Position numbers and translations under genes: made by a program. The notes beneath the pieces were generated by a model. The model did no database searches. It worked only from the letters and a program-made list of their open reading frames with translations, and was not told the origin of the DNA. From the NCBI GenBank assembly GCA_964565195.1, contig CAZMCQ010000003.1, positions 24,080 to 88,079 on the forward strand: a DNA stretch of 64,000 nucleotides. Reading direction: 5' to 3'. This document shows positions 1,350 through 41,709 of the stretch, piece by piece; position 1 is the first letter of the stretch; every line of letters starts with the position of its first letter. This DNA is from an uncultured Candidatus Saccharibacteria bacterium. GTDB lineage: Bacteria; Patescibacteriota; Doudnabacteria; UBA920; 2-01-FULL-46-14.

Positions 1350-1440
1350 TAAAAATGAAATATCAAAAATAAAAATGACAGTTAAAAATTTTAAAATTTT
1401 ACATTGTAATTTTACATTTTGATTTTTGAATTTTGAATTA
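1350..1440. repeat. AT-rich ~95-bp imperfect palindromic intergenic element, family D copy 1 (atpB-atpE spacer)
   Basis: Near-identical to 2653..2744 and related to 41620..41709; core aaatatcaaaaataaaaatgacagttaaaaattttaaaatttt...cattttgatttttgaattttgaatt. Confidence 0.55.
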
Positions 1441-1517
1441 TCGTTGCATCCGCCGACCAAATAAATCCAAAGAATAATTAATCGGTCGAGCAAGATGCGG
1501 AAAGGAATTTAATCATT

Positions 1518-1742
1518 ATGGCACTCGATGCAGAAACAGCCACGGTGCTGGCCAAGGGCATGACCATTGCGCTTGGCGGGGCGCTGCCGGCCTGGGCCAT
1601 CGGCAAGACGGCCTCGAAAGCGATGGAATCCATCGGCCGCAACCCGGAGTCAACGGACAAGATTTTCGTCCCCATGCTGCTCGGCATGGCCTTTGCCGAA
1701 GCCATCGCGATTTACGCGCTGGTGATCACCTTTATTTTGTAA
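1518..1742 (+). CDS. atpE: F0F1 ATP synthase subunit c
   Basis: 74-aa two-helix hairpin proteolipid, conserved GMAFAEAIAIYALV region. Confidence 0.9.
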   Translation: MALDAETATVLAKGMTIALGGALPAWAIGKTASKAMESIGRNPESTDKIFVPMLLGMAFAEAIAIYALVITFIL

Positions 1743-1747
1743 TTTAT

Positions 1748-2257
1748 ATGGCTGCGCCAGAACCAAATTTCATCGGCACCCTCGGCCTCAACTGGAAGCT
1801 GTTTTTGGCGCAGCTTGTAAATTTTGGTGTGGTGCTTTTTATCTTGTGGCGGTGGGTGTTCAAGCCCGTGGGCGGCGCTTTGGAAGGCCGCCGCCAGAAG
1901 ATCGAAAAAGCCGTGCGCGATGCGGAAGAGATTGAAAAACGGATGGCTGAAGTTGCGCAGACGACTGAAAATAAGATTAGCAAAGCCCGTGCCGAGGCAG
2001 ACGGCTTGATGGCGAAGGCCGAAAAGCAGGCGGCAGACATAAGAGAACAAACCGTTGCGGCCGCCCGTATCGAAGCGGAACGGATGCTCGCCGGGACGCG
2101 CGAGACGATCGAGAACGAGAAGGATAAAATGTTCAAAGAAGTCCGTGAAGAAGTGGCGGCCCTTACAGTGATGGCCGCGGAGAAGATTCTGCGCCAAGAG
2201 ATGAAACCAGAAAAGCAAAAAGAGCTCACGGCCGAGGCATTAAAGATATTGAAATGA
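1748..2257 (+). CDS. atpF: F0F1 ATP synthase subunit b
   Basis: N-terminal TM followed by long charged coiled-coil; operon position. Confidence 0.8.
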   Translation: MAAPEPNFIGTLGLNWKLFLAQLVNFGVVLFILWRWVFKPVGGALEGRRQKIEKAVRDAEEIEKRMAEVAQTTENKISKARAEADGLMAKAEKQAADIREQTVAAARIEAERMLAGTRETIENEKDKMFKEVREEVAALTVMAAEKILRQEMKPEKQKELTAEALKILK

Positions 2258-2652
2258 AATTTACCACCCGACAATATGCGCAAGCCCTTTTTTCGGCAAT
2301 TTCAGAAGTAAGTACGGCCGATCACGACAAGATAATCAATAATTTCGCGGCCATTTTGCAAAAAAACGGCGACCTCGGCCTTGTAGACAGAATTGAAGAA
2401 GAATTCCGGGCCATTGACCGCGAGAGCAAGGGAATTAAGCTGGCGGAAGTGACAACAGCGCATACCCTTACGGAGGAAGAGGAAAAACGTCTGGTGCAAA
2501 AACTCAATGACTACGTCAAGGGAGAAGTGGAGATTAAAAAACGCCTTGACGAAGGACTGATCGGCGGAGTGATGGTGAAGATCGGCGACGAACTTATAGA
2601 CGGATCAGTGAAGAGACAGTTGCAGGATTTGAAAGATGATTTGTCGAAATAA
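2254..2652 (+). CDS. atpH: F0F1 ATP synthase subunit delta (short, 132 aa)
   Basis: OSCP/delta-like C-terminal region (LIGGVMVKIGDELIDGSVKRQL); overlaps atpF stop by 4 nt; position between atpF and atpA. Confidence 0.7.
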   Translation: MKFTTRQYAQALFSAISEVSTADHDKIINNFAAILQKNGDLGLVDRIEEEFRAIDRESKGIKLAEVTTAHTLTEEEEKRLVQKLNDYVKGEVEIKKRLDEGLIGGVMVKIGDELIDGSVKRQLQDLKDDLSK

Positions 2653-2744
2653 TGCAAAAATCAAATATCAAAAATAAAAATGACAGTTAGAAATTTTAAA
2701 ATTTTAGATTGTAATTTTGCATTTTGATTTTTAAATTTTGAATT
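2653..2744. repeat. AT-rich palindromic intergenic element, family D copy 2 (atpH-atpA spacer)
   Basis: ~93% identical to 1350..1440. Confidence 0.55.
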
Positions 2745-4253
2745 ATGAAAACCGACGAGATTATTGGACAGCTAAAGAAACGCATCACTGGATTTCAGAT
2801 TGAGACTAAAATCGAGCGTGTCGGCGAAGTTTTGCAGGTTGGCGACGGCGTGGCATCCATCTCCGGGCTTTCCCAGGTCGCGGCGTCCGAAATCGTCGAA
2901 TTTGAGACCGAGGCAGGCAAAGTTTCGGGCGTGGTTTTGAACCTCGAAGAAGACCGGGTTGGCGCTGTCGTGCTCGGCGCGCAGGAAGCCATTCGCGAAG
3001 GCGCGCGCGTCCGCGCCACTGGGCGGATTTTGTCAGTGCCGGTCGGGGAGGGGATTATCGGGCGCGTGGTGAGTGCACTTGGTGTCCCGGTGGATGGAAA
3101 AGCAGCTGTCAAAAGCGAGAAATTTTACCCTGTCGAAAAGATCGCGCCCGGGGTTATCACCCGCGAGGGAGTCAAGACGCCGCTGCAGACTGGGATCAAG
3201 GCCATTGATGCAATGATCCCGATCGGCCGCGGCCAGCGCGAGCTCATCATCGGCGACCGCCAGACCGGCAAGACCGCGATCGCCATTGATGCGATCATCA
3301 ATCAAAAAGGCCAGGACGTGATCTGCATTTATGTGGCGATCGGCCAGAAAGAGTCCAAAGTCGCCAAAATTGTTGCCGAACTTGAGGCGCGCGGCGCCAT
3401 GGCCTATACCATTGTCGTCGTGGCCGGCGCTTCGGATCCAGCCGCGCTTTCGTATATCGCGCCGTATGCGGGCTGCGCGATGGGGGAGTACTTTATGGAC
3501 AAGGGCCGCGATGCTTTGGTCGTTTATGACGATTTGTCAAAACACGCCGTGGCGTACCGCGAAATTTCGCTGCTGCTCCGCCGGCCGCCGGGCCGCGAGG
3601 CGTATCCCGGTGACGTGTTCTATCTACATTCGCGCCTGCTCGAGCGCGCCGCCAAACTCAACAAAGATTTCGGCGGTGGCTCGCTTACGGCGCTCCCGAT
3701 CATCGAAACGCAGGCCGGCGATGTCTCGGCCTATATTCCGACCAATGTCATCTCCATCACGGATGGACAGATTTATCTCGAAACCGATCTTTTCTATCAG
3801 GGCATTCGTCCCGCGCTCAACGTCGGTTTGTCAGTCTCGCGCGTCGGCTCGGCCGCGCAGACCCGCGCCATGAAGAAAGTGGCCGGCAAGCTCCGGCTCG
3901 AGCTCGCGCAGTTCCGCGAGCTGGCGGCCTTCGCGCAGTTTGCCTCGGACCTCGATGAGAACACGCGCAAGCAGATTGAGCGCGGCAAGCGTATCACCGA
4001 AGTTTTGAAACAGCCGCAGTACGCGCCGATGCCGGTTGAACATCAGGTGGCGATTGTTTATGCCGTGACGAACGGCTTCCTCGACGACATTGCCGTGGAA
4101 AAAATCGCGGATTTCGAGCATAAATTCCATCAGTATCTGGATCGAAGTTATAAAGAACTTTTAAATCAGATCCGCGTAAAACGAGAGCTTGATGAATCGA
4201 CCGAGGCAAGACTTAAAAAAATAATTGAGGAATTTAAAAAGGGATATCAGTAG
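2745..4253 (+). CDS. atpA: F0F1 ATP synthase subunit alpha
   Basis: Walker A GDRQTGKT, full-length 502 aa alpha subunit. Confidence 0.95.
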
Positions 4254-4305
4254 AATTAACCTAATTATTCTAATTTCTAATTACCCTTAGAAATTTACAG
4301 ACGTT

Positions 4306-5202
4306 ATGGCATCCACTAAAGAAATCAGAAGAAGAATAAGATCAATCCGTAGCACCCGGCAAATTACGAAGGCCATGGAGCTGGTTTCTGCGGCGAAGAT
4401 GCGTCGCGCGCAGCAGCAGGCGCTCTCCTCGCGGACCTATGCGCGCCTCGTCTGGGAACTGGTTTCCAATCTCATGCCGCAGACTCATCCGGAGCTCCAT
4501 CGTCTTTTGCGGGAGCCGCAGAATGGAAGGAAAACCGCGATTATCCTGATGGCTTCGAACCGCGGCCTCATTGGCGCGTTCAATAATAACATTACTGCCA
4601 AAGGGTTTGACTACGCTAAAACGCAGAGTGCCGTTGCATTCATCACGCTCGGAAACAAGGGCCGCGAAACAGTCAAAAAAACCTCCGAGGTCGCCGCGGA
4701 TTTTGAGAAACTTGACGCGGCGGCGGATGTTCTGGAAATCCGGCCAGTCGCCAAACTGGTTACCGAAGATTTCATCTCCGGAAAATATGACCGCGTGGTT
4801 GTCGTGTACATGCGATTTGTGAGCACGCTTACGCAGGTGCCGGAAGTTCTGGAATTGCTACCCCTCCCTCAATCCCTCCCACAAGGGGAGGGAAAAGAAG
4901 GATATTCCTCCCCCCTGGGTGGGGGAGGCAAGGTGGGGGGCGAATACCTCTTTGAACCCACCCCTGACGCGGTCCTCGAAACCCTGCTGCCGCGCCTTGT
5001 CGAGATGCAGATTTACCAGGCGCTCCTGGAGACCAACGCTGCCGAGCACTCGGCGCGCATGGTCGCGATGAAGAACGCGTCAGACGCGGCGAGTGATCTG
5101 GTGGATGACTTGACGCTTGAATACAACCAGATCCGGCAGGCAGGCATCACGACCGAGATAAGCGAGATCGTGGCGGGAAGATTAGCACTGCAAGAGAATT
5201 AA
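4306..5202 (+). CDS. atpG: F0F1 ATP synthase subunit gamma carrying an in-frame ~26-aa Gly/Pro-rich insertion
   Basis: N- and C-terminal gamma helices conserved (MASTKEIRRRIRSIRSTRQITKAMELVSAAKMRRAQ; ...EISEIVAGRLALQEN); insert LPQSLPQGEGKEGYSSPLGGGGKVGG encoded by GC-rich palindrome at 4861..4945. Confidence 0.9.
   Translation: MASTKEIRRRIRSIRSTRQITKAMELVSAAKMRRAQQQALSSRTYARLVWELVSNLMPQTHPELHRLLREPQNGRKTAIILMASNRGLIGAFNNNITAKGFDYAKTQSAVAFITLGNKGRETVKKTSEVAADFEKLDAAADVLEIRPVAKLVTEDFISGKYDRVVVVYMRFVSTLTQVPEVLELLPLPQSLPQGEGKEGYSSPLGGGGKVGGEYLFEPTPDAVLETLLPRLVEMQIYQALLETNAAEHSARMVAMKNASDAASDLVDDLTLEYNQIRQAGITTEISEIVAGRLALQEN
4861..4945. repeat. GC-rich palindromic element, family A copy 1, in-frame inside atpG
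   Basis: tccctccc-acaa-ggggaggga and cctcccccc-tgggt-gggggagg hairpins; local GC far above flanks. Confidence 0.7.
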
Positions 5203-5209
5203 GAATTAG

Positions 5210-6631
<1,422 letters not shown>

Positions 6632-6690
6632 CTTATAGGTGTTAGCTTTTAGGGCTATAAGCTATAACCTATTTCCTATAAGCTAGTTTT
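6632..6690. repeat. TATAAGCT-motif hairpin element, family C copy 1 (atpD-atpC spacer)
   Basis: agcttatag ... ctataagct reverse-complementary arms; related to 42385..42476 and 39455..39492. Confidence 0.4.
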
Positions 6691-7125
6691 ATGGCAAAAA
6701 TGAAACTGAAGATAGCCACCCCCGAGCGTGTCATTTATGAGGCGGACGTAGATGCCGTGTCTTGCCCCACCGAAATGGGTGAGATTACGATTCTGCCCAA
6801 TCATATCCCGCTCGTGGCCAACCTGAAGCCCGGCGAGCTGAAAGTCATGGACAATAGCGAGCCGCGCTACATTTTTGTGGCCGGCGGTTTTGTGGAGGTC
6901 CGGCCCGGCAATGAAGTGATGATTTTGGCTGATGCGGCCGAGCGTGAGGAAGAGATAGATATTGCCCGCGCCGAAGAAGCGCGCAAGCGGGCGCAGAAAC
7001 TTCTTGGTGAGAAGATCCAAAGTGAAGAGGAGTACGCGGCCGTGGCGGCCTCCCTGGAGAAATCTCTCGCCAGGTTGAAAATCTCAAAGCGACGCAAATA
7101 TCGGGACGTAGGAAAAAAAATGTAA
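6691..7125 (+). CDS. atpC: F0F1 ATP synthase subunit epsilon
   Basis: N-terminal beta-sandwich plus C-terminal helical hairpin; end of atp operon. Confidence 0.85.
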   Translation: MAKMKLKIATPERVIYEADVDAVSCPTEMGEITILPNHIPLVANLKPGELKVMDNSEPRYIFVAGGFVEVRPGNEVMILADAAEREEEIDIARAEEARKRAQKLLGEKIQSEEEYAAVAASLEKSLARLKISKRRKYRDVGKKM

Positions 7126-7128
7126 ATT

Positions 7129-7137
7129 TGCTACAAT
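7129..7137 (+). promoter_or_regulatory. Extended -10 promoter candidate (TGcTACAAT) for the downstream hypothetical gene
   Basis: TG-N-TACAAT read directly; ~33 nt upstream of an AGGAGG RBS and ATG at 7170. Confidence 0.3.
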
Positions 7138-7169
7138 GTACAGGTTGGAATTTTGTTATAGGAGGAGTT

Positions 7170-7532
7170 ATGAGTATGCAACCTTTACTAATTTGCGCCT
7201 TGCGGCAGTCAGATACATACGTTGCGGATAAAACCGCGGAATTTGTCAGGTGTTTTCAAAAGCGACGAACGTCGGTCAGGCGCTTTCTGAAGGGAGTCAA
7301 ACCACCTGTAGACAAACGGGTGGAACTCGAGGTGCAGCTTCGTTTTTTTGTCCTTTTGGTGACTTTGCAAAAGGGCATCGCGGAAATTTCGCAGACAATG
7401 GAGCGGAAGCCACACAAAACCTTTGAGGTTGTGGCAAGGAAAATTTTGGTGCTCGAGCGTCTGCAGGGGGAGATTGCCGGGCGACTTGCGCGGGCCAAGT
7501 GCGAAATGCGCAGCTTGGTTAGGACGTATTAA
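7170..7532 (+). CDS. Hypothetical protein (120 aa)
   Basis: AGGAGG RBS 7163-7168, ATG 7170, followed by an intrinsic terminator; no recognisable domain. Confidence 0.4.
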   Translation: MSMQPLLICALRQSDTYVADKTAEFVRCFQKRRTSVRRFLKGVKPPVDKRVELEVQLRFFVLLVTLQKGIAEISQTMERKPHKTFEVVARKILVLERLQGEIAGRLARAKCEMRSLVRTY

Positions 7533-7551
7533 GAAGCAACATTTGCAAGGT

Positions 7552-7583
7552 GCGGATCCACCCGGGTCCGCCCCTTTTTTATT
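7552..7583 (+). terminator. Rho-independent terminator (gcggatcc-accc-gggtccgc + T-run)
   Basis: 8-bp GC-rich stem, 4-nt loop, followed by cccTTTTTTaTTT. Confidence 0.6.
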
Positions 7584-7602
7584 TATATGCTAAACTTGCT
7601 TT

Positions 7603-8970
7603 ATGGAATTCGTATGGCCGGATAGATCAGCGCTTTCGCAGGGTGGTTTTGAAATTGTCAAAAAATTGCGGGTCAAAGGTTTTGAGGCATTCGTTGCCGG
7701 AGGCGCGGTGCGCGACGCTTTATTGAAAAGGCCGATACGCGAGATAGACATCGCGACCTCGGCAACGCCAGCGCAAGTTAAGAAAATTTTTACCAAGACC
7801 ATACCGACAGGGGAGAAGCACGGGACGATAACGATAAGAATAAAAGATAACAATAATTATAACCATTATGAGGTTACCACATACCGCAAAGAAGGGCTGT
7901 ATCGCGATAACCGCCGGCCGAGCAGCGTTAAGTTCCTCAAAAGCGCCGAGGAAGACGCCAAGAGGCGCGATTTTACTGTTAACGCCTTATTCTATGACCC
8001 TGAAAAGAAGGCAGTTATAGACTATGTTTTGGGCATTGCTGATCTGAAAAAGAAGATTATCCGGCTTGTCGGCGACTCCGAAGCCCGGATTCGCGAGGAC
8101 GCGCTTCGGATGCTCCGCGCCGTGCGCATCGCGACAGAACTTGGCTTTGATATAGACCGCGACACCCGCCGCGCGATCCAGAAGAACGCAAAACTCATTC
8201 TCAAAATCTCCGCAGAGCGGATCAAACAAGAATTCGACCGGCTGTTAATGAGCGAGCATCCGTCAATCGGCATCGGCGTTTTGGACGTGCTCGGGCTATT
8301 GCAATTTATAATGCCCGAGCTGAAAAGGTGCCAGGGGGTGAGGCAACCGAGAAATCAACATTCGGAAGGGGATGTTTATGCCCACTCGCTCCTCGCGCTC
8401 GAGCAGGTGAATGAAGATTATGATCTTGCGACGCGCTATGCGGTTTTGTTTCATGATCTCGGCAAGGCCGAGACGCGCGTGGTACGACAGGGCCGCATGA
8501 CTTTTTACAATCACCCGCAGGTGGGCGAGACGATTGCGAAAAATATTTGCAAGCGCATGAAGTTCAGCCGTGCGGACAGTCGAAAAGTTGCGTGGCTCGT
8601 GCGTTACCACATGGTGCCTTTTGACTTTCCCGGGATGCGGCTTTCTACCCGCCGGAAGTGGGCGCAAAACCCGTATTTTCGCGATCTTTTGCGGGTCTAT
8701 TTGGCTGATGTAAAAGCCTCGATTCCTGCTATCGGCAGGCGCAGTGGACGACCAGTTGGCCTCCGCCAGGCCATTGATATTCTGCGCGAGCTGGATAACA
8801 AGCCGGAACTTTCCCTTCCCCTGATCAGTGGTTACGACGTGATGAAAATTTTGAAAATAAAATCCGGGCCAAAGGTCGGAGAGATACTAAAAAAAATTGA
8901 TGAACAAAAACTTTCTGGAAAATTAAAGTCAAAAACTGACGCGATAAATTTTTTAAAAAAAGAAAAATAA
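7603..8970 (+). CDS. cca: CCA-adding enzyme / tRNA nucleotidyltransferase with HD domain
   Basis: PolyA-polymerase head domain motif GGAVRDALL...DIDIAT, HD-type C-terminal region. Confidence 0.8.
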   Translation: MEFVWPDRSALSQGGFEIVKKLRVKGFEAFVAGGAVRDALLKRPIREIDIATSATPAQVKKIFTKTIPTGEKHGTITIRIKDNNNYNHYEVTTYRKEGLYRDNRRPSSVKFLKSAEEDAKRRDFTVNALFYDPEKKAVIDYVLGIADLKKKIIRLVGDSEARIREDALRMLRAVRIATELGFDIDRDTRRAIQKNAKLILKISAERIKQEFDRLLMSEHPSIGIGVLDVLGLLQFIMPELKRCQGVRQPRNQHSEGDVYAHSLLALEQVNEDYDLATRYAVLFHDLGKAETRVVRQGRMTFYNHPQVGETIAKNICKRMKFSRADSRKVAWLVRYHMVPFDFPGMRLSTRRKWAQNPYFRDLLRVYLADVKASIPAIGRRSGRPVGLRQAIDILRELDNKPELSLPLISGYDVMKILKIKSGPKVGEILKKIDEQKLSGKLKSKTDAINFLKKEK

Positions 8971-8982
8971 TCGCAAATTAAC

Positions 8983-9011
8983 TTGACAAAATCTTATCCA
9001 CATCGTAAAGT
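8983..9011 (+). promoter_or_regulatory. Sigma70-like promoter candidate (TTGACA-17-TAAAGT)
   Basis: Consensus -35 with 17-nt spacer; upstream of tiny basic-peptide ORF. Confidence 0.45.
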
Positions 9012-9125
9012 TAATGTATAAATTGTAATTTAAAAATTTGAAAAGGAAACAAAAAAGTTTCCCAATCAAAGATAAAAAATAATTAAGTCCCCGATTTGAG
9101 ATCGGGAGACGGGAGAAAAAGAAGA

Positions 9126-9191
9126 ATGGCTAAGAAACGCAAGAAGGCCAAGAAATCTTCTCGCAAGAAGAGCCGCCGCAAGAGAGCCTAG
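9126..9191 (+). CDS. Tiny highly basic peptide, 21 aa (MAKKRKKAKKSSRKKSRRKRA)
   Basis: GGGAGAAAAAG RBS-like stretch, ATG, stop, then intrinsic terminator; leader has two small hairpins (ggaaac-aaaaaa-gtttcc; cccgat-ttgag-atcggg). Not in ORF track because <60 aa. Confidence 0.4.
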   Translation: MAKKRKKAKKSSRKKSRRKRA

Positions 9192-9215
9192 GTACTACGG
9201 CTCCACGGCTAGTAG

Positions 9216-9248
9216 AAAATCCGCCTCATCGGCGGATTTTCTGTTTGT
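9216..9248. terminator. Bidirectional intrinsic terminator (aaaatccgcc-tcatc-ggcggatttt)
   Basis: 9-bp stem flanked by A-run on one side and T-run on the other; serves + small ORF and - tRNA cluster. Confidence 0.6.
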
Positions 9249-9259
9249 AAAAATTCTTT

Positions 9260-9338
9260 TGGCGGGCCCGACCGGATTTGAACCGGCGATCTTCTCCGTG
9301 ACAGGGAGACGTGTTGGACCGGGCTACACCACGGGCCC
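9260..9338 (-). tRNA. tRNA-Asp (GTC), CCA encoded
   Basis: Reverse complement folds as cloverleaf: acceptor GGGCCCG/CGGGCCC, anticodon loop CTGTCAC, T-loop GGTTCAAATCC. Confidence 0.8.
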
Positions 9339-9347
9339 CAACTCTAA

Positions 9348-9423
9348 TGGTAGCTGGGGTGGGGATCGAACCCACGACCTAAGGCTTATGAGTCCTTCGC
9401 TCTGCCAACTGAGCTACCCAGCC
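9348..9423 (-). tRNA. tRNA-Met/Ile2 (CAT), elongator type, CCA encoded
   Basis: rc = GGCTGGGTAGCTCAGTTGGCAGAGCG...CTCATAA...GGTTCGATCCCCACCCCAGCTACCA; anticodon CAT (Met vs lysidine-Ile not distinguishable). Confidence 0.75.
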
Positions 9424-9424
9424 A

Positions 9425-9501
9425 TGGTTGCGGGGGCGGGATTTGAACCCGCGACCTCAAGGTTATGAGCCTTGCGAGCTACCAGACTGCTCTACCCCGC
9501 G
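9425..9501 (-). tRNA. Initiator tRNA-fMet (CAT), CCA encoded
   Basis: rc starts CGCGGGG and ends CCCCCGCAACCA giving the C1xA72 mismatch diagnostic of bacterial initiator tRNA; anticodon loop CTCATAA. Confidence 0.8.
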
Positions 9502-9591
9502 TCGTCGTCCTTTAGGGACTTCGCAATATTACCACGAATTGTGAAAAATTTCAAGGCGTGTTATGGTATTAGAAAATGCCAAGGGGGTGTC

Positions 9592-10131
9592 ATGGATAAC
9601 AATCATTATTGGGGCCGGGAACTTCTCGGCGTGCTGGCATTGGAGGAACCAGAGCTGGATTTGCTGATCCATCAAGCCGCGCGCCTGAAAAATACATCGC
9701 CGCGTTGGCGTTGCGATATGGTCCGGGAAGTAGTGCTGGCTGTAATACCGCGCCACGCGGCCCGGCCAGACAAGTTTTTTGAGAAAGAACGAGAGGCTTT
9801 TTTGCAGGAAGTGCAGCAGCGGAATACCTTGGGCTGTGCAGTTAAGCACAAGTTCGGTTTGGACGAGCATTTCCATGTGCTGTACTTTCTGCTCGCCAAG
9901 CTCGCCGGCGCCGGTCAGCATCTGCGGCTTTGCGCCAAGATGATTGAACCCGGGCTGCAATACTCGTGGGTCGAGATCGTTGGCGATTTTGAAGTTCTGC
10001 ACGGCGGTAGAAGCGAAAAACATGATCTGCGGATCATAGATTTCACGCGGGAATTTTTTTCGGATCACGAAAATCCCTATCGGATTGACCAGCGTCGCTA
10101 TGAGGATGGCGAAACCGTAGCGGGTTTCTAA
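9592..10131 (+). CDS. Hypothetical protein (179 aa from ATG 9592; frame open from 9472)
   Basis: Coding-like Glu/Lys/Arg-rich composition; a competing antisense ORF (9529..10068) exists, so strand is uncertain. Confidence 0.35.
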   Translation: MDNNHYWGRELLGVLALEEPELDLLIHQAARLKNTSPRWRCDMVREVVLAVIPRHAARPDKFFEKEREAFLQEVQQRNTLGCAVKHKFGLDEHFHVLYFLLAKLAGAGQHLRLCAKMIEPGLQYSWVEIVGDFEVLHGGRSEKHDLRIIDFTREFFSDHENPYRIDQRRYEDGETVAGF

Positions 10132-10278
10132 AGCGGAGCGGCTCCTTGTTCATTTTGGGCAAGGCGCCGTTTTTTATTGGGCGTGTTCAAAATTCCGTTT
10201 TATGATATTCTTCAGGGTCAGGGCTGTTTTGCGGAAGCCCTGAAGTATGACATTTAGGTTAGAAAAGGAGGAAATTGT

Positions 10279-10947: not shown

Positions 10948-11033
10948 GTCCAGCCCGGAGGCGCTGGCAATATCCAAAGGTGGCTCGCGTGATTTGGGAT
11001 TCGTCCCGACTCTCGCAGTCACCTTTTTTTATT

Positions 11034-11073
11034 TGTTGAAAAACACCCACATTTGTGGGTGAAATTCAACAAA
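11034..11073. promoter_or_regulatory. 40-bp near-perfect palindrome (TTGTTGAAAAACACCCACATTTGTGGGTGAAATTCAACAA) upstream of pyrD; candidate operator
   Basis: Read directly; both nested arms (ttgttgaa/ttcaacaa and cacccaca/tgtgggtg) are reverse complements. Confidence 0.35.
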
Positions 11074-12204: not shown

Positions 12205-12214
12205 TGGGATTTTA

Positions 12215-12239: not shown

Positions 12240-12283
12240 ACCCCTCCCGGCCTACGGCCACCCTCCCCTCGGCAGGAGAGGGC
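12240..12283. repeat. GC-rich element, family A copy 2 (weaker, intergenic)
   Basis: cccctccc...ccctcccctc-ggca-ggagaggg partial palindrome. Confidence 0.35.
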
Positions 12284-13311: not shown

Positions 13312-13362
13312 CCCCCTCTCTTTCTCCCCCTCACGAGGGGGGAGAGGAAGTGGGGGTAGGAG
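13312..13362. repeat. GC-rich palindromic element, family A copy 3 (intergenic)
   Basis: tctccccctc-acga-gaggggggaga hairpin plus gtgggggtagg tail. Confidence 0.6.
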
Positions 13363-13370
13363 AAAACAAA

Positions 13371-13895: not shown

Positions 13896-13903
13896 CCGCT
13901 TGC

Positions 13904-13974
13904 GGTCATCCTGAGGGCTTGCCCCGAAGGATCTACGCCGTATAGAGATTCTTCGCTTCGCTCAGAATGACAAT
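13904..13974. repeat. ~70-bp nested palindrome, family B copy 1 (GTCATCCTGAG...GAAGGATCT...AGAGATTCTTCG...CTCAGAATGAC), intergenic
   Basis: Outer and inner arms reverse-complementary; second copy at 30079..30147. Confidence 0.6.
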
Positions 13975-13980
13975 AATCGT

Positions 13981-20031: not shown

Positions 20032-21000
20032 ATGAACGTCAAATTTTTCACCGAGCTTGACAGGAAAAGTGTTCTGGAGGCCGGGGGCAAGGGGGCCTCG
20101 CTTGGGGAGATGACCAGCGCCAAAATTCCCGTGCCGCCGGGGTTTGTGGTTTTGGCCGCGGCTTTTGACCGCTTCCTCGCAGAAACCGATTTAGATTCGG
20201 AAGTCGAAGCGATTTTAAAAAAAGTCAACGCCAAAGACGTGAACTCTGTAGATAAAGCCTCGGCCGAGATCCGGGATTTGATCCACCGCGAGCAGATGCC
20301 CAAAGATTTGCAAAAAGAAATTGTCGCGGCTTATGATATTTTATTCCCCTCCCTTGAGGGGAGGGGCAAGGGGAGGGTGAAAGGACTTGTTGCGGTCCGC
20401 TCGTCAGCCACTGCCGAGGATTCCAAAGTCGCCTCCTGGGCAGGGGAACTGGAGACTTATCTGAATGTTCAGGAAAAAGGTTTAATCCGCGCGGTAATGA
20501 AGTGCTGGTCCTCGCTTTTTACGCCGCGCGCGATTTTTTACCGCTTTGAGAAGAAACTGCACCGCAAGCCGGTTTCTGTCGCGGTGGTGGTGCAGGAAAT
20601 GGTTCAGTCCGAGATTTCCGGCGTTGCTTTCACCGTGCACCCGGTTACAAAAGACTACAATCAAATGGTGATTGAGGCCGGGTTTGGTCTGGGGGAAGCG
20701 ATCGTTTCCGGCCAGATCACGCCAGATACCTACGTTGTGCACAAAAACGATTTTTCGATTCTCGATATAAATGTTTCAGAGCAGAAGATGGCAATTGTCA
20801 GAAGCGCTGGCGGCGATATTCACAAGAACCTGTCTGTAAAAGTAGGCAGCAAACAAAAACTCACGGGCAAGCAGATTGTGACACTCGCGAAAATCTGCAA
20901 AGGCATTGAAAAACACTACAAACACCCGCAAGACATAGAATGGGCCTATGTGAAGGGCAAATTCTACATCACTCAATCCCGCCCGATAACGACTTTATGA
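20032..21000 (+). CDS. Stand-alone PEP synthase / pyruvate phosphate dikinase N-terminal ATP-binding domain (PPDK_N) protein, with in-frame family A insertion
   Basis: GGKGASLGEM ... VAVRSSATAEDS ... ends exactly at the PPDK_N domain boundary (ITQSRPITTL); insertion FPSLEGRGKGRV from palindrome at 20343..20385. Confidence 0.7.
   Translation: MNVKFFTELDRKSVLEAGGKGASLGEMTSAKIPVPPGFVVLAAAFDRFLAETDLDSEVEAILKKVNAKDVNSVDKASAEIRDLIHREQMPKDLQKEIVAAYDILFPSLEGRGKGRVKGLVAVRSSATAEDSKVASWAGELETYLNVQEKGLIRAVMKCWSSLFTPRAIFYRFEKKLHRKPVSVAVVVQEMVQSEISGVAFTVHPVTKDYNQMVIEAGFGLGEAIVSGQITPDTYVVHKNDFSILDINVSEQKMAIVRSAGGDIHKNLSVKVGSKQKLTGKQIVTLAKICKGIEKHYKHPQDIEWAYVKGKFYITQSRPITTL
20343..20385. repeat. GC-rich palindromic element, family A copy 4, in-frame inside PPDK_N gene
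   Basis: cccctccc-ttga-ggggaggg plus caaggggagggtg. Confidence 0.65.
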
Positions 21001-21457
21001 AAACTTACGTGTTCATTGACGCATCAAATCTCTTTTACGGAGGCGAAATGTCCTTCTACTCACAATTCAAGGTCGATCTCGGAGACCCGAACCGCTACCG
21101 GACCTTAGGTGAGCTGGTAGCAGCCGTCTACCGGCAAATTTACTATTACAACAACGAGCGAATCCACACCAAATTAAAAATGCCGCCCAAGCTTTATGCC
21201 GAGCGACATCAATTAACAACTAATCCCGTATCCGTTAGACTGTAGACAAGATGTCTAAAGAACGGGGAGCAGGCCAGTTAGTGCTATCGGGCGATGGTGA
21301 TTTTTTGCCGGTGTTGAAACACTTAAAAGATCAGGGTAAACAAGTTATACTCCTTGCAAGAGGCCCGCGAACGGCAAAGGAGATAAGACAGTTTGCAGGA
21401 CCCAATTTCAGGGATTTTGAATACCTGAAATTCCTTCTGAAAATGGATGACATATAA
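20997..21457 (+). pseudogene. Decayed NYN-domain gene with an embedded transposase (rve-family) C-terminal tail fragment
   Basis: MKTYVFIDASNLFYGG (NYN N-motif) ... LGELVAAVYRQIYYYNNERIHTKLKMPPKLYAER (integrase-core tail) ... stop ... LVLSGDGDFLPVLKHLKDQGKQVILLA (NYN C-motif) in a second ORF. Confidence 0.45.
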
Positions 21458-33314: not shown

Positions 33315-33325
33315 CGCTATTCAAA

Positions 33326-34270
33326 CTACCACCACCAGATCAGAATCGAGATTATCACCAGCAGAAAAAAGTTCAAAAAATGATAGCTGGAATGGCCACG
33401 GCCGGTGATGATTTGACGGCCGTAGATGATAATTGTATCAATGGTCAGGATGGCGAGCATTACCACGCCGAAGAGTGTGAAGACGAGTCGTGGCCAGAAA
33501 GGCTGCTGCTCGCCGGCGGCTTTTGGTGCTGGAATGACTGTTTTGATTTCTTCAACGAGGCCAGGCAGGATATATTTTTCCCTGGCCAGGGGCGCGGTGA
33601 GAGTTGCATCGGTTGGCGCCGGCGGAAGATTATTTATAGTTTGGGATAGGGCCTCCTTTGGCTCCGGCGGCGGGGGATTGGGCACAGTCTGGGGCGCCGG
33701 CCGCGCCGCACTTTCGCCGGCAACCGGATATAGCGCGCCAAACAGACTCGTGGTCACGTTGGTATAGCGTTCCTGGAAATTTCCATAGAGCGTTTTCAGA
33801 CCCTGGTCGATAAAGTCCGTATTCAGCATATTTGCGCGGTGCGTTGGGCTATCCACCCAGGCCTTCACCATACCCTCTGATGTGGAAAAGTCAATGGCGA
33901 GATTTTCGCCGAGAATTTTGTAGGGCGCATAGCCGGCTTTGACGATCCGCCCCCAGACATAGTCGCCGTCCGGATCAATATGCGCGAAATAATCGCGCGC
34001 GAGCATATCCGAGGATTTCCCATCGGCGGCGGTGTTTAGGGCCGGACTTAAAAGCAGGGTGGGGATATTGCGCGCGGCGCGTTCGCTGTTGATGAGATTC
34101 ATGATCAACCCGGACTCGACCGCAGCCGCCTCGGCCGGCGGCGGGGCGAGCAGAAAGAGCCGCAACAGAAGCAGGACCAGGGCATAGATGAGAAACGCTT
34201 TGTAGGACAGCACCGGCGGCCGGTAGTTGTTCTCCTGCCTGGCAATGAAAAAGTTTGTGATTTTCCCCAT
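33326..34270 (-). CDS. CAP/SCP/PR1-like domain protein, membrane-anchored at both ends
   Basis: NSERAARNIPTL...DMLARDYFAH...GENLA...WVDSPTHRANML CAP-domain signature; Pro-rich linker. Confidence 0.6.
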   Translation of the reverse strand: MGKITNFFIARQENNYRPPVLSYKAFLIYALVLLLLRLFLLAPPPAEAAAVESGLIMNLINSERAARNIPTLLLSPALNTAADGKSSDMLARDYFAHIDPDGDYVWGRIVKAGYAPYKILGENLAIDFSTSEGMVKAWVDSPTHRANMLNTDFIDQGLKTLYGNFQERYTNVTTSLFGALYPVAGESAARPAPQTVPNPPPPEPKEALSQTINNLPPAPTDATLTAPLAREKYILPGLVEEIKTVIPAPKAAGEQQPFWPRLVFTLFGVVMLAILTIDTIIIYGRQIITGRGHSSYHFLNFFLLVIISILIWWW

Positions 34271-34297
34271 AAACTGGTATAATTATATCGCAAAGTT

Positions 34298-34615
34298 ATG
34301 CTAAAGTCGAAGTCCCGCGCGTGGCCAATAGTTTTGTTTGCGCTTTCCCTCGGAGTGGCGACGGCGATTGTCGTGGGGGTGGATCCCGCGCGGGGCGAGT
34401 TGTGGCAGTTGGCCCTTTTATATCTTGCTGTCTTCACCCTGGTTTACGCGCTGGTTTTGCTGATCGTGCCTCATATCCGCAAGCAAGCCGCGCTGGTCGC
34501 GCTCCTGACCGTCGCCGCTTTGCTGCTCCTTGCGCAGGGGATGTTCACGCCCACGAGCGGTATTCTACTGCTGGCCCTTTTTGTCCTTATCGAGCTTTAT
34601 GCCATCTCCCGCTAA
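34298..34615 (+). CDS. Small hypothetical membrane protein
   Basis: Three hydrophobic helices. Confidence 0.35.
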   Translation: MLKSKSRAWPIVLFALSLGVATAIVVGVDPARGELWQLALLYLAVFTLVYALVLLIVPHIRKQAALVALLTVAALLLLAQGMFTPTSGILLLALFVLIELYAISR

Positions 34616-35342
34616 TTACGTTACGGATGGGCGCGAATATTTGAGGTTTTTAGCCTCGGGCAGCGGCGCGCTGATGCGGGGGATGCTCACGCCGATCCTG
34701 CTCGAGATGATTGATGCTTCCGGTAAGACGCTCCTTGATCTCGGCTGCGGTGAGGGTTACTACACTCGACTGTTTCGGCAGAGGGGCGCCCAGGCTGCGG
34801 TGGGCATTGATATTTCCGAAACTCTTTTGGCCGAGGCGCGTAAACAGGACCCGCCGGGGCGGTACTTTCTCCTCGATTTTAACGCGCAAAGTTTTCCCGG
34901 AGAAGAACGCTTTGATGTAATTCTCGCCAATATGGTGCTCATGAATTTTCAAGATTTAAAGTCCAGCTTTGCGAAATTGGCCGGCCTGATGAAACTCGGT
35001 GGGCAGTTGACTGTTGTAATCGCCAATCCCTTTTATGCCTACCCGGTCGGGCAGTGGAAGCGATCCTGGTTTGGCAAACTGCGCCTGGTCGTCGGCAATT
35101 ATTTTGCGCCGCAGGCCAGGGATTTCTCGTTTCCGGAAAGCGAGTTGAAATTTCCGCATTATCATCACCTCCTTTCAGAGTATGTTAATTATGCAATGGA
35201 CGCAGGATTCACGCTCCACGAATTGCGCGAACCCGCCATCCCTTCAGAACTTTCGAAAAAATACCGCGGCGTTTTGCTGGCTAAACAATTAACAGCGGTG
35301 CCAATTTTTCAAATCTTAAATTTTAAATATGGACAAAAATAA
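34599..35342 (+). CDS. Class I SAM-dependent methyltransferase
   Basis: Motif I LLDLGCGEGYY, motif II-like GIDISE; start chosen at ATG 34599 to avoid overlap with upstream ORF. Confidence 0.65.
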   Translation: MPSPANYVTDGREYLRFLASGSGALMRGMLTPILLEMIDASGKTLLDLGCGEGYYTRLFRQRGAQAAVGIDISETLLAEARKQDPPGRYFLLDFNAQSFPGEERFDVILANMVLMNFQDLKSSFAKLAGLMKLGGQLTVVIANPFYAYPVGQWKRSWFGKLRLVVGNYFAPQARDFSFPESELKFPHYHHLLSEYVNYAMDAGFTLHELREPAIPSELSKKYRGVLLAKQLTAVPIFQILNFKYGQK

Positions 35343-36380
35343 AAACGATCCGCTTGACAACCTCGACTACGACGTCATGCCAGGGGTTGGCAATGCTGCA
35401 CCACGGTTGGCCATTGACGTAAAGCCCGCTGCGCCTACGACGCCTGCGGTTCCGCCTGTCATACATGGCCATTGGAATTGGCGCGTCATCGGTATTTCCG
35501 CGGCCGGCGCGCTGCTGTTTGTTAGTCTCTCGCTTTGGGCCTACTGGAAATACGTGGTGAATTACGATCCCGAAGGGGAGAGCGCGCCGTCAAACGCCAG
35601 CAACATCATCGTGCCTCCGCCAGAGAACAACACGGACACGGATGCGGACGGGCTTACCGACAGCCGCGAGGAAGAACTCGGCGTCGATCCGGGAAAAGCC
35701 GACAGCGATGGCGACGGCTTGGCGGACGGCGATGAGGTCAACGTTTACCACTCGGATCCGCTTCTGCCAGATACGGACAGCGATACTTTCCAGGACGGAC
35801 AGGAGGTCAAGGACGGCTATGATCCAGCGGTAAATTCCGGCAGCAAAGCGCCGGCGGAAACATTGAAATTGTGGGAGGACCGCATCATTGAATTTGGCCT
35901 GCACGAGCCGACCAAAACGACTCTGAATGTGCCGGCGCAAAATGAGCAAACCATGGAAACCCCGGAGGCAGCAGTTTATGCGAATGCCGTTTTTAAATAT
36001 TCCACGGCCGTGCCGAATCTCCTCGAGGTGCGCGAATCAAGCGATAAACGCAACGTCGGCTTCCGCATCAAGGGCGCGGCGGTGGAGGACGAGGATGTCA
36101 CGACTGACCCGATTTATATCACAGCCGCGGTCAATGCCGGCGGGGAAACTTTGCGCGAGTGGGTGGCTGGGCAGTACCAGCCCGCCACGGACTATGATTC
36201 GCTGCAGGAGCTGAAAATCAACGGCATTGACGCAATCAGGATTACCGGCGTGGCGGGCGAGATTTGCGACGGCAACAAAGTTTTTGTGGCCAGGGATACT
36301 GCGGTTATCATCCTCACCTGGCAGTGCAACAATATTGCCGCGTTTGGCCAGCTTTTTGATCAGATTGTGCAGAGCTTTAA

Positions 36381-36390
<10 letters not shown>
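35329..36390 (+). CDS. Membrane-anchored protein with thrombospondin-type-3-like Ca-binding repeats
   Basis: TM helix then repeated DTDADGLTD / DSDGDGLADGDE motifs. Confidence 0.5.
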
Positions 36391-39454
<3,064 letters not shown>

Positions 39455-39492
39455 AGGGCAGGTTATAGGAGATAGGTTATAGGTTTTAGGAA
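39455..39492. repeat. Family C-related direct repeat (ggttatagg x2) after gyrB
   Basis: aggttataggagataggttataggttttagg. Confidence 0.3.
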
Positions 39493-39638
39493 GAAACGAT
39501 TGTATCAGTTTCGTGCGGCCGTCTAATTTTGATACAATCGCTCGTTCTAAATTCTTGGCCGAGAATTTAGGAACTCCAGCGCTTAAGAAAACACTTCTGG
39601 TTATCACTAGATTTGTTCGCCAGTGAATAACGTAATTT

Positions 39639-39690
39639 AAAAAAAAAGCCCGGGCAGCGCGACTTGGTAGTCGCACCGCCGCGGGCTTTG
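39639..39690 (-). terminator. Intrinsic terminator for minus-strand gene 39702..40073
   Basis: agcccgggcagcgcgac-ttggta-gtcgcaccgccgcgggct long GC stem with A9 on + strand (T9 on transcript strand). Confidence 0.6.
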
Positions 39691-39701
39691 AAACCAGTTG
39701 A

Positions 39702-40073
39702 TTAGTACAAAACGCCTGCACTGCAGCCGCCGAGTTCCGGTTCTCCTTCGAGATTGACTGGACGAATTGAGAGTCCGTAACTTTGCGCCAGCGTTACCAA
39801 CGGAAAGTTGTCTGGCTCAGCGCATGAAACGGCGAGGCGCATCTTGGAAAGCTCGCCGTTTGCCGGATCAGTCTTGTCTTCCAGGCCTGCAAACCACTCG
39901 CCATCCCGGAAGAAGTTTTGACCTTGCACGTCCAGCCCCAAATCCTTGGCCTCCTCGAGAAATCTTTCGAGGTCTGTCAGACTGTCCTGAAGGCGCATTA
40001 TTACGTACCCGATGATCATTGCGATTACAGCAATGATTCCAATACCAGCGAGAACCTCAACGAGTGACGGCAT
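39702..40073 (-). CDS. Hypothetical N-terminally membrane-anchored protein (124 aa)
   Basis: AGGAGG RBS 5 nt upstream of ATG at 40073 (minus); N-terminal TM; ORF track frame extends to 40133. Confidence 0.45.
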   Translation of the reverse strand: MPSLVEVLAGIGIIAVIAMIIGYVIMRLQDSLTDLERFLEEAKDLGLDVQGQNFFRDGEWFAGLEDKTDPANGELSKMRLAVSCAEPDNFPLVTLAQSYGLSIRPVNLEGEPELGGCSAGVLY

Positions 40074-40118
40074 GAAACCTCCTATAAAGTGAGTATTTGG
40101 TACAATTATTTCAAAAAT

Positions 40119-40148
40119 TTGACAGACCGTCAAGGGGTGCGGTATAAT
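40119..40148 (+). promoter_or_regulatory. Sigma70 promoter (TTGACA-18-TATAAT) for secE-nusG-rplKA
   Basis: Consensus hexamers read directly. Confidence 0.55.
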
Positions 40149-40162
40149 GCATTCAGTTAAAT

Positions 40163-40262
40163 TGAAAGGCCCGGAAAGGCCTTTTAAAATAGGCCGTAAT
40201 CGGCCGTATCCCCGAGCAGTCGGGGATACATAAGATAAGAATGGATTCCCGCCTTCGCGGGA
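40163..40262 (+). other. Structured leader with three consecutive hairpins upstream of secE
   Basis: aaaggcc-cggaa-ggccttt; gtatccccg-agcagt-cggggatac; attcccgc-cttc-gcgggaat followed by GAATGAC. Confidence 0.3.
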
Positions 40263-40274
40263 ATGACAGGCGTT

Positions 40275-40463
40275 ATGAATAAACTATTGCAATTTTTGAA
40301 AGACGTGCGCGTGGAGCTGGCCAAAGTGGTCTGGCCGAGCCGGCGCGAGGCCATCCGCGCCACGGGCATTGTGATTTTGTTTTCGCTCGCAGTCGCGGCC
40401 TTCCTGGGACTCATTGATTTTGGTCTGGCCAAGCTCATAGGTTTAATCGTTGATCTAAAATGA
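40275..40463 (+). CDS. secE: Preprotein translocase subunit SecE
   Basis: Small single-TM protein with VRVELAKVVWPSRRE motif, directly upstream of nusG. Confidence 0.7.
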   Translation: MNKLLQFLKDVRVELAKVVWPSRREAIRATGIVILFSLAVAAFLGLIDFGLAKLIGLIVDLK

Positions 40464-40548
40464 AGACCTCTCTTAAACCCCTCTTTAATTCTCCCCCCTG
40501 CCTTGCCGGCCGGCAGGTCGACAGGGGAGAAATAAAGGAAGATAACTA

Positions 40549-41094
40549 GTGCCGAGACAGATAACCACAGGGGAAAAGCATTGGTATGTCTTGCATACTT
40601 ATTCCGGCTACGAGGATTCTGTCGTGAACAACCTCAAGCAGCGCATTGAATCCATGGGTATGGAGGACAAGATTTTTGACGTGACTGTGCCGAAGGAGAA
40701 AAAAATCAAGATTCGCGACGGCAAGCGCGTCACGGTCGAGGAGAAAATTTTTCCCGGCTATGTGCTCGTACAGATGATCGTGACCGACGACTCCTGGTAT
40801 GTGGTGCGCAATACCCCGAACGTGACCGGCTTCGTCGGCTCGGGCACGGTGCCCACGCCCATCTCGGATGAGGAGATCAAGACCATCCAGAAGCGGATGG
40901 GCATGGAAGAGCCGAAATACAAGATTGAGTTCAAGGTGACGGATCTCGTCCGCATCACGGACGGCCCGTTCAAGGATTATGAGGGCAAAGTGTCCGAGAT
41001 AGACGAGGCGAAAGGGAAGATTAAAGTGTTGGTATCCATTTTTGGAAGAGAGACGCCGGTGGAATTGGATTTTTTGCAAGCGAAAAAGTTGTAA
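40549..41094 (+). CDS. nusG: Transcription termination/antitermination factor NusG (GTG start)
   Basis: NGN domain WYVLHTYSGYE, KOW domain; AAGGAAG RBS. Confidence 0.85.
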   Translation: MPRQITTGEKHWYVLHTYSGYEDSVVNNLKQRIESMGMEDKIFDVTVPKEKKIKIRDGKRVTVEEKIFPGYVLVQMIVTDDSWYVVRNTPNVTGFVGSGTVPTPISDEEIKTIQKRMGMEEPKYKIEFKVTDLVRITDGPFKDYEGKVSEIDEAKGKIKVLVSIFGRETPVELDFLQAKKL

Positions 41095-41193
41095 TACAAT
41101 TAATTTCTTTAATATCGCGCAGGCCGAAAGGCCAAGCAAGTTTCAATAAATTTCGCGATATTTGTGGAGACTTGTGGAAATATATAGAAATTT

Positions 41194-41619
41194 ATGGCGA
41201 AGAAGGTAAAGACAACAATTAAGCTGCAGATTCCGGCGGGCAAGGCCAATCCGGCGCCGCCGATTGGCACGGCGCTTGGGCCGCACGGTATCAATATCAT
41301 GGATTTCTGCAAGGTCTTCAACGAGAGAACCCGCGACAAGGGCGATTCCGTGATTCCGGTCGTGATGACGATCTACGAGGACCGCAGTTTTCAATTTATC
41401 CTCAAAACTCCGCCAGTCTCGGACATGATCAAGAAAGCGCTCAAAGTGGAGAAGGGCGCGAGCAACCCCCTCAAGAATAAGATCGGAAAATTAAGCCGCG
41501 CCCAGCTGCGCCAGATCGCGGAAGCGAAAATGGCCGATCTCAATGCCAATAGTATCGCCGCCGCGGAAAAGATTGTTGCCGGAACGGCAAGAAGCATGGG
41601 AGTCGAGGTAGAAAATTAA
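41194..41619 (+). CDS. rplK: 50S ribosomal protein L11
   Basis: MAKKV...[26 protein letters not shown]. Confidence 0.9.
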
Positions 41620-41709
41620 AATGTAAATATCAAAAATCAAAATTGCAGATTAAAATTTTAAATTTTTCACTATCATTTTCAATTTTGATTTTTAATTTTT
41701 GATTTCGCA
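41620..41709. repeat. AT-rich palindromic intergenic element, family D copy 3 (rplK-rplA spacer)
   Basis: Diverged relative of the atp-operon copies (aatgtaaatatcaaaaatcaaaattgcag...attttgatttttaatttttgattt). Confidence 0.45.

Follow-up and report, generated by a model that had tools for sequence, protein, structure and literature searches.

Three spacers in a 64,000-nt stretch of DNA (contig CAZMCQ010000003.1 of assembly GCA_964565195.1, positions 24,080–88,079; hereafter the window) hold copies of one short AT-rich palindromic element. On balance (we put the probability at about 0.6), these are copies of a non-coding dispersed repeat, similar to the short tandemly repeated repetitive (STRR) sequences of cyanobacteria or to MITEs (miniature inverted-repeat transposable elements), and not a regulator made for the ATP-synthase or ribosomal-protein operons in which they lie. 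The host is a metagenome-assembled genome (MAG) of Candidatus Doudnabacteria, a lineage of the candidate phyla radiation (CPR/Patescibacteria); the AtpF and L1 proteins of the window are 100% identical to the proteins of that MAG. The family to which the copies belong is very large and extends over many CPR genomes and several other phyla. The element arrives by insertion in a copy-and-paste manner, lands at or a few bases from a stop codon, usually filling the spacer up to the next start codon, and has neither a preferred neighbouring gene nor a preferred orientation.

The three elements are related imperfect palindromes of approximately 92–96 nt at the atpB–atpE, atpH–atpA and rplK–rplA junctions. 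Copy 1 (1346–1441, + strand) begins with the final A of the atpB stop codon (TGA, 1344–1346) and ends before a separate atpE leader; copy 2 (2651–2746, + strand) occupies the entire spacer from the atpH stop (TAA, 2650–2652) to the atpA start (ATG, 2745–2747); and copy 3 (41618–41709, + strand), which is older and diverged, occupies the spacer between the rplK stop (TAA, 41617–41619) and the rplA start (ATG, 41710). All three start at the upstream stop codon or no more than 1 nt from it, copies 2 and 3 have their 3′ end at the downstream ATG, and no Shine–Dalgarno (SD) sequence was found before atpA or rplA. A repeat search grouped 1346–1441, 2651–2746 and 41612–41707 as one direct-repeat family, in which the second member is 94% identical to the first and the third 64% identical without gaps, and scored each as a palindrome with overlapping arms that are 76–77% complementary. 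These results bear out an earlier reading made from the sequence alone (the sequence-only reading), which had described long imperfect palindromes inside operons, nearly identical in the atp operon and diverged at rplK–rplA; the flanking genes are those that it named (atpB, atpE, atpF, atpH, atpA, secE, nusG, rplK and rplA were confirmed by NCBIfam, and a dCTP deaminase gene, dcd, follows rplA). A 24-nt consensus (AAATATCAAAAATMAAAATKRCAG, with up to two mismatches) matched the window three times, exactly at the three copies (0.00 matches expected from 100 dinucleotide shuffles), and the right-arm consensus matched six times (0.02 expected from shuffles). A hidden Markov model of the arm trained solely on copies from other genomes recovered the six arms of the three copies and nothing further in the 64 kb, despite other AT-rich stretches. 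The spacers that hold the copies have 15–21% G+C (79–85% A+T), and no conserved open reading frame (ORF) was found in the copies (copy 1 contains ATG–TAA and copy 2 a 12-codon ORF). In a second assembly of the host genome (GCA_016198105.1), the contig terminates 7 nt beyond copy 2.

All copies are periodic arrays with a 7-nt unit, repeated about 13 times: an A-rich half, (YAAAAWK)n, comes first and its complement second. The layout is about six degenerate YAAAAWK units, a short centre and about six complement units. Copy 1 keeps a single heptad register across its 96 nt (AATGTAA, AAATGAA, ATATCAA, AAATAAA, AATGACA, GTTAAAA, ATTTTAA, AATTTTA, CATTGTA, ATTTTAC, ATTTTGA, TTTTTGA, ATTTTGA and ATTAT, in this order). 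Tandem Repeats Finder (TRF) detected period 7 in all three copies, namely in the T-rich arm of copy 1 (1408–1439, + strand; AATTTTG × 4.6), the A-rich and T-rich arms of copy 2 (2655–2681, + strand, CAAAAAT × 4.0; 2713–2749, + strand, AATTTTG × 5.3) and the T-rich arm of copy 3 (41675–41705, + strand; ATTTTTA × 4.6). The predicted RNA folds are long, all-A·U hairpins of −12 to −19 kcal/mol. Measured against dinucleotide shuffles, the folds of copies 1 and 3 are no more stable than those of shuffled sequence (z = −0.23 and −0.81, respectively), and copy 2 has a z of −2.52; the helix base in its minimum-free-energy (MFE) structure pairs AUAAU, which holds the UAA stop codon, with AUUAU, which holds the AU of the AUG. 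Rfam at gathering score returned tRNAs only, and a permissive search of 1300–2800 returned nothing meaningful.

The three copies yielded an exact pattern (TCAAAAATMAAAAT-N25–55-ATTTTGATTTTT), which was searched for in a species-representative genome collection and gave at least 117 loci. Among the matches listed, to which all counts for the family given below also refer, CPR carriers comprise Saccharibacteria, Berkelbacteria, Kuenenbacteria, Kerfeldbacteria, Taylorbacteria, Magasanikbacteria and others, and the remaining carriers belong to Nitrospirota/Thermodesulfovibrionia, Nitrospinota, Pirellulales/Planctomycetota, Chitinophagaceae, Dehalococcoidia, Omnitrophota and Chlamydiae. Some matches lie on complete chromosomes and on contigs of 0.5–0.9 Mb, including those of non-CPR phyla, and several lie at contig ends. 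Conservation extends beyond the imposed pattern (AATGTAAAATGTAAATA on the left and GACAAT...ATTGTCATTTTCC inside), and the window copies fall squarely within the family alignment. The position profile of the family shows A-runs every 7 nt that fade approximately 18 nt outside the core. A G+C-rich central hairpin is present in 45 of the 117 members; the window copies are of the AT-only type. Near-identical copies of about 130 nt occur at different places in different species-level genomes, and solo arms without a partner occur at loci L062, L124 and L127. In the Berkelbacteria genome JAPLVH01 (L062 and L094), a family member stands at nearly every gene junction over 8 kb, with a spacing of about 1 kb; the G+C hairpin occupies the centre of most of these, and one is a solo arm of the A-rich kind, which takes up a 59-nt spacer. 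We rejected the idea of a phage-borne family because 2.9 million viral contigs gave a single match, in a giant-virus MAG. A subfamily-specific 42-nt pattern had no match in metagenome contigs, which thus yielded no population-level alleles with or without the element, a full-text literature search for the core sequence found no paper, and a search of the literature on CPR bacteria with MITEs or repetitive extragenic palindromic (REP) sequences found nothing relevant.

In junction type, the family does not differ from background. A first classification of the 117 loci placed 79 between co-directional genes, 8 between convergent and 5 between divergent genes, 4 in an ORF and 21 at the edge of a block or contig. 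A second classification, with a tighter junction definition, compared 85 scorable junctions with 587 other junctions in the same loci: 81% of the family junctions were co-directional, against 72% of the background (Fisher p = 0.09), divergent junctions numbered 4 of 85 against 69 of 587, and convergent junctions were not enriched. Measured from the core, the upstream stop is at a median distance of 16 nt, as long as the outer arm itself, and the first downstream start at a median of 23 nt, so that as a rule the whole space between stop and start is taken up by the element. The 63 downstream proteins examined carry 112 Pfam families, with no transposase ranked and highly expressed genes not in excess. 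The ATATC arm, used as an asymmetric marker, is read along transcription in 10 cases and against it in 13. Where three to five arm matches fell in one locus, they belonged to separate elements at consecutive junctions; no autonomous element, sought as an ORF with an arm on each side, was found, and no related insertion sequence (IS) was seen among the neighbours of family members. This spread beside unrelated genes agrees with the sequence-only reading in one respect, as it had argued from the atp copies for a general rather than an L1-specific role.

Two explanations bear on transcription signals. The first, which we regard as extremely unlikely, is that the element is a weak bidirectional intrinsic terminator or attenuator within operons. 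The A-rich 5′ arm and U-rich 3′ arm do read alike on both strands, and the 45 members with a G+C-rich central hairpin have a T-rich arm after it, but the window copies lack a G+C stem. The terminator scan, which looks for a G+C-rich stem followed by a T-run, called no terminator-like site in any of the three copies, as the sequence-only reading had anticipated; copies 2 and 3 moreover precede the essential, co-transcribed atpA and rplA, and a terminator is at odds with the lack of enrichment at convergent junctions. The second is a portable signal for the downstream gene, either an outward σ70-type promoter in the T-rich arm that yields leaderless or short-leader transcripts, or a U-rich, S1-type site for SD-independent initiation. 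In the family consensus, TTGTCA-N17-TACATT is read in the right arm, TTGTAA-N17-TAAATT in copy 2 stops 7 nt short of the atpA ATG, the bona fide promoters of the window have a −10 box 6–11 nt before the ATG and TTGTCA in use as a −35 box, and many family members adjoin an ATG without SD. However, no σ70 site of at least 9/12 (−35/−10, 16–18-nt spacing) was found on the gene strand of any copy (the best site found by hand scored 8/12), and the matches that do occur are inward ones on the minus strand, in counts not clearly above those of shuffles. In copy 1, the critical second position of the −10 box is a G and atpE is 77 nt away, AT-rich heptads yield such hexamers by composition, and divergent junctions are depleted if anything. 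We consider a portable signal improbable.

Comparison with related operons indicates how the atp copies came to be there. In L002, the closest atp relative (AtpF 74% identical), atpH and atpA overlap as ATGA and the atpB–atpE spacer holds nothing beyond an 83-nt conserved hairpin-plus-SD leader. The atpH–atpA spacer measures 1–15 nt in L125, L126, L127, L129 and L133, the two genes overlap by 4 nt in L128, and L134 has an unrelated 43-nt spacer. The site after the atpB stop is likewise empty in L002, L126 (in which 2–7-nt spacers run all through the atp operon) and L128. As these junctions lack the element in relatives, the two atp copies are recent, lineage-specific insertions. Filled and empty sites in relatives, a hallmark of MITEs, are thus both present. 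The site directly after the atpB stop has been occupied independently by three elements, in the window (copy 1), in L125 and, as a solo arm, in L127; L125 also carries a full AT-heptad element at atpD–atpC and none at atpH–atpA. Copy 2 is flanked by AT on either side, an ambiguous signature given that AT also extends the palindrome; if it is a duplication, excision of copy 2 gives TCGAAATGAAAACC, with the ATGA overlap of L002. The atpA gene of L125 (GCA_964396685.1, 7092–8739) was called in three fragments (252, 266 and 39 amino acids), by frameshift or pseudogenisation or through an assembly error.

The 77-nt atpE leader that follows copy 1 (1442–1517, + strand) is context and not part of the element. 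It consists of a hairpin (GCATCCGCCGACC...GGTCGAGCAAGATGC), an SD sequence (AAAGGA) and the ATG, and is kept in relatives with or without the element (L002, 2761–2826; L125–L128). Its stem varies between genomes yet stays paired (GCATCCGCCGACC/GGTCGAGCAAGATGC versus CACCGAC/GTCGGTA). As a real atp cis-element, this leader is a more convincing candidate than the AT-rich palindrome.

The rplK–rplA copy has a different history. L121, whose L1 protein is 80% identical, carries an orthologous copy at the same junction that is identical at 78 of 90 positions (87%) and has the derived motif TTGCAGAT in common with copy 3; copy 3 thus predates the split from the L121 lineage. Four-fold degenerate sites are 56% identical between the window and L121 in rplK, 48% in rplA and 28% in dcd. 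The 87% is to be read against the 63% that shuffled AT-rich sequence already reaches in gapped alignment, and against paralogous copies that are nearly as close (72–77 of 90). In other relatives, junctions of CPR operons are filled by palindromes of like architecture built on other heptads: CAGGTNT (L133 and L134), GCGTANN and GATTTAG (L129), CCAAATY (L127), GAATYAK (L123 and L136) and ATCACGW (L135), as well as G+C-rich types.

Within a copy, the left arm is no more complementary to the right arm than are arms taken from different copies (9.65 versus 9.70 of 22 positions without gaps; gapped, p = 0.12). RNAalifold found no consensus pair (0) in a 38-sequence alignment; with the copy 1 hairpin imposed on the alignment, 85.6% of cells were paired versus 86.1 ± 0.4% with shuffled partners, the covariation score was 0.066 versus 0.067 in shuffles, and half of the variable positions were unpaired. 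As there is no covariation beyond that of shuffles, the pairing potential is a property of column composition, with A-columns facing T-columns, and not of compensated pairs. The sequence-only reading had named folding and covariation among the ways to check its proposal of a cis-regulatory RNA that sets subunit stoichiometry, and this proposal is not supported: pairing reflects composition only, two of the three copies fold like shuffles and the folds are weak, the atp sites are empty in relatives, and family members occur in both orientations beside genes of 112 Pfam families. It had also held that copies scattered in untranscribed DNA without conserved pairing would refute its proposal. On the second point, pairing is indeed not conserved beyond composition; on the first, the copies are not in untranscribed DNA (81% versus 72% co-directional).

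An array read at the DNA level would need no pairing. Ribbon–helix–helix proteins such as omega of pSM19035 read 7-bp repeats, and the inverted 7-bp units could be bound cooperatively by such a heptad-reading protein or by a nucleoid-associated protein that prefers A-tracts. The strict 7-bp periodicity along the whole element, the conservation of A-tract positions with variable unit positions 6–7, and the lack of orientation dependence and of pair covariation are what a motif array would give. However, we found no candidate protein and no genomic association, and the junction elements of relatives use quite different heptads; a protein-bound array is very unlikely.

The strongest case for function at the RNA level is a generic, selected intercistronic module that protects the upstream cistron from 3′ exonucleases, serves as a processing site or couples translation over the 90-nt spacer. 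The element abuts the upstream stop, mostly at co-directional junctions; copy 2 pairs its stop region with its start region (z = −2.5); the L121 ortholog is conserved at 87% against saturated synonymous sites; rplK–rplA is occupied in all lineages examined (see below); and atpA and rplA lack SD sequences. Roles in stability or coupling have been proposed for 7-bp STRR hairpins between hupS and hupL (PMC2670836), and REP sequences entered the literature as intercistronic elements (reference list of PMC3184786). Against such a module, the same atp junctions are empty in seven or more relatives, there is no covariation, half of the variable positions are unpaired and RNAalifold gives no consensus structure, copies 1 and 3 fold like shuffles, solo arms persist partnerless at L124, L127 and L062, and both orientations occur. 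We regard this module as possible but unlikely, and a generic role of any kind, at the RNA or the DNA level and taken over all the alternatives, as only slightly less so; such a role is kept alive by the identity of the L121 ortholog and the constant occupancy of rplK–rplA.

Several observations weigh against a dispersed repeat as we propose it. No target-site duplication could be defined, and copy 1 has none; near-identical copies in Saccharibacteria, too, have no flanking direct repeat in common. Only 1.3 kb separates copies 1 and 2, whose 94% identity could thus also stem from local duplication or gene conversion. Complementarity between the two arms of a copy does not exceed that between arms of different copies, which is unusual for a transposon based on terminal inverted repeats (TIRs), and neither an autonomous partner nor a transposase was seen. 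The L121 ortholog is 87% identical despite saturated synonymous sites, which points to constraint or concerted evolution and not to neutral decay; concerted evolution toward the family consensus is the alternative to constraint here. Finally, all seven Doudnabacteria lineages that were examined have a heptad palindrome of some kind at rplK–rplA, drawn from five or more sequence families, which looks like a hot spot or a requirement. It is conceivable, if rather improbable, that heptad palindromes form a distinct, undescribed class of junction elements that spread horizontally across phyla without TIRs or target duplications, insert after stop codons and are selected for stop–start proximity (translational coupling) in SD-poor genomes; if true, this would explain why rplK–rplA is always occupied, and by interchangeable sequences.

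If the copies are a dispersed repeat, their persistence may be explained as follows. The element would be tolerated at junctions as a co-transcribed, weak, all-A·U hairpin. In copy 2, the base of this hairpin may join the stop-codon and start-codon regions and so mimic the ancestral overlap, and the hairpin would extrude from the mRNA, leaving stop and start adjacent, in a host that probably depends little on SD sequences. With a tolerated hairpin and little dependence on SD, effects on expression would be a by-product and not a designed control of stoichiometry. One candidate mechanism of spread is that heptamer arrays slip or recombine, a route put forward for the STRR repeats of cyanobacteria.

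Known elements share parts of this architecture. A 7-bp STRR hairpin lies between the co-transcribed hupS and hupL of cyanobacteria, where stability or translational coupling was proposed and the function is unknown (PMC2670836). STRR repeats resemble the present element in their 7-bp units, their intergenic position, often within operons, and the hairpin formed when arrays are inverted (PMC2670836; PMC4692102). They differ in that the unit here is AT-only (CAAAAAT/ATTTTTG), the hosts are CPR and other non-cyanobacterial phyla, and a fixed palindrome of approximately 95 nt is copied whole (94% identity) in place of an open-ended tandem array. Known STRR unit sequences differ from CAAAAAT/ATTTTTG. 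The GGGAATC and GGGGAYT heptamers of Xanthomonas and Nostoc are mostly intergenic, between co-directional genes and nearer to the upstream ORF, and some Xanthomonas arrays are paired as inverted repeats (PMC4692102). Like ours, these are heptamer arrays close behind the upstream ORF between co-directional genes; unlike ours, they are G-rich and form G-quadruplexes, whereas the present element has no G-runs and pairs an A-rich with a T-rich half.

MITEs such as Correia/CREE, ERIC/IRU, Nezha and Chunjie are likewise shorter than 200 bp, non-coding, multi-copy and palindromic, with a long RNA stem-loop, filled and empty sites and, in some cases, positions inside operons (PMC3184786). As a short (below about 400 bp), non-coding, multi-copy element without a transposase gene (92–96 nt, present three times in the window and at no fewer than 117 loci elsewhere), the element fits this description. 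It is not a classical MITE: we found no target duplication, no discrete TIRs (the arm is a degenerate heptad array) and no related IS, and the fold stability is very low (−12 to −19 kcal/mol). REP sequences and bacterial interspersed mosaic elements (BIMEs) are also dispersed extragenic palindromes after stop codons, first described as intercistronic elements of operons (reference list of PMC3184786). REP units are 20–40 nt long with G+C-rich stems and are linked to REP-associated tyrosine transposases (RAYTs), unlike the element of approximately 95 nt and 79–85% A+T described here. An L1 autoregulatory mRNA site would lie, as one copy does, directly before rplA, but the element is also in the atp operon and by unrelated genes in more than 100 genomes, and the rplK–rplA elements of relatives are unrelated to it. 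We rejected an L1 operator on the grounds that the same element occurs in the atp operon and beside unrelated genes and has no Rfam match. What would mark a structured cis-regulatory RNA was not seen in the family: there is no Rfam match, no covariation and no constant gene family, and only the rplK–rplA copy has one ortholog. Two further candidates were rejected: TIGR-Tas arrays (no tandem spacer units and no Tas gene nearby) and integron attC sites, which the alternation of genes and palindromes had brought to mind (no GTTRRRY core sites, and conserved gene order in atp and rplKA).

Other repeats are present in the window. Further intergenic period-7 arrays or palindromes lie at 4254–4305 (CTAATTA, atpA–atpG), 5195–5219 (AGAATTA × 3.6, atpG–atpD), 6632–6690 (GCTATAA × 4.6, atpD–atpC), 39455–39490 (AGGTTAT × 4.4, after gyrB) and 42385–42476 (TAGCTTA, rplA–dcd); a GCTATAA/CTTATAG type is found at three of these five sites and in the orthologous rplA–dcd spacer of L121. 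A period-10 repeat (GAAAYTTRTR, three to four units) stands at 501–539 and 41157–41195, directly before the starts of atpB and rplK, the genes that head the two element-bearing operons. This repeat could serve both operons as an operator or leader motif; it is missing from L121, where the nusG–rplK spacer has 14 nt. G+C-rich CCCCTC...GAGGGG palindromes lie at 13321–13364, 62624–62667, 20340–20383, 12240–12282, 61500–61623 and, within atpG, 4860–4947, where the copy-like stretch encodes a variable loop of AtpG (PQSLPQGEGKEGYSSPLGGGGKVGGE) with no net change in length versus relatives; insertions of this type also follow the atpB stop of L125 and the rplA gene of L136. Palindromes of a GTCATTCC...GGAATGAC type lie at 13896–13980, 44872–44913 and 45202–45255 of the window, the last two bracketing a 95-amino-acid ORF (44914–45201), and at 158–242 of L122 and 6592–6688 of L125, filling rplK–rplA in the former and atpF–atpH in the latter.

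The gene starts of the window are mostly of a kind without SD, with an SD-like motif at only 16 of 70 crude gene starts. Good −10 boxes 6–11 nt before the ATG (for example, at starts 52596, 27843, 24868, 33326 (−) and 23333 (−)) suggest that leaderless transcripts are common in the host; a canonical TTGACA-18-TATAAT promoter lies at 40119–40148. A tiny ORF at 9126–9191, adjoining a tRNA cluster, encodes a lysine/arginine-rich peptide of 21 amino acids (MAKKRKKAKKSSRKKSRRKRA), with GGGAGACGGGAGAAAAAG before it and a terminator-like hairpin after it. At 21001–21322, frame 3 encodes the remnant C terminus of a DDE (rve-type) integrase (...ELVAAVYRQIYYYNNERIHTKLKMPPKLYAERHQ), a decayed insertion sequence, and no link was seen between this remnant and the palindromes.

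These results remove a tempting but wrong annotation, that of an ATP-synthase or L1 regulatory RNA, and put in its place an apparently undescribed and very widespread repeat family that is absent from Rfam and whose core sequence had no match in the literature. Such elements break MAG assemblies, as contigs end there, and fill most of the non-coding space in CPR operons. The spread across phyla stands out, as does the junction-filling habit common to the sister families. The architecture of heptad array, centre and complementary array, realized with many heptads at CPR junctions, offers a link to the long-unexplained heptamers of cyanobacteria and Xanthomonas, and ATGA-coupled genes that face a 90-nt insertion in organisms with little SD usage constitute a natural experiment.

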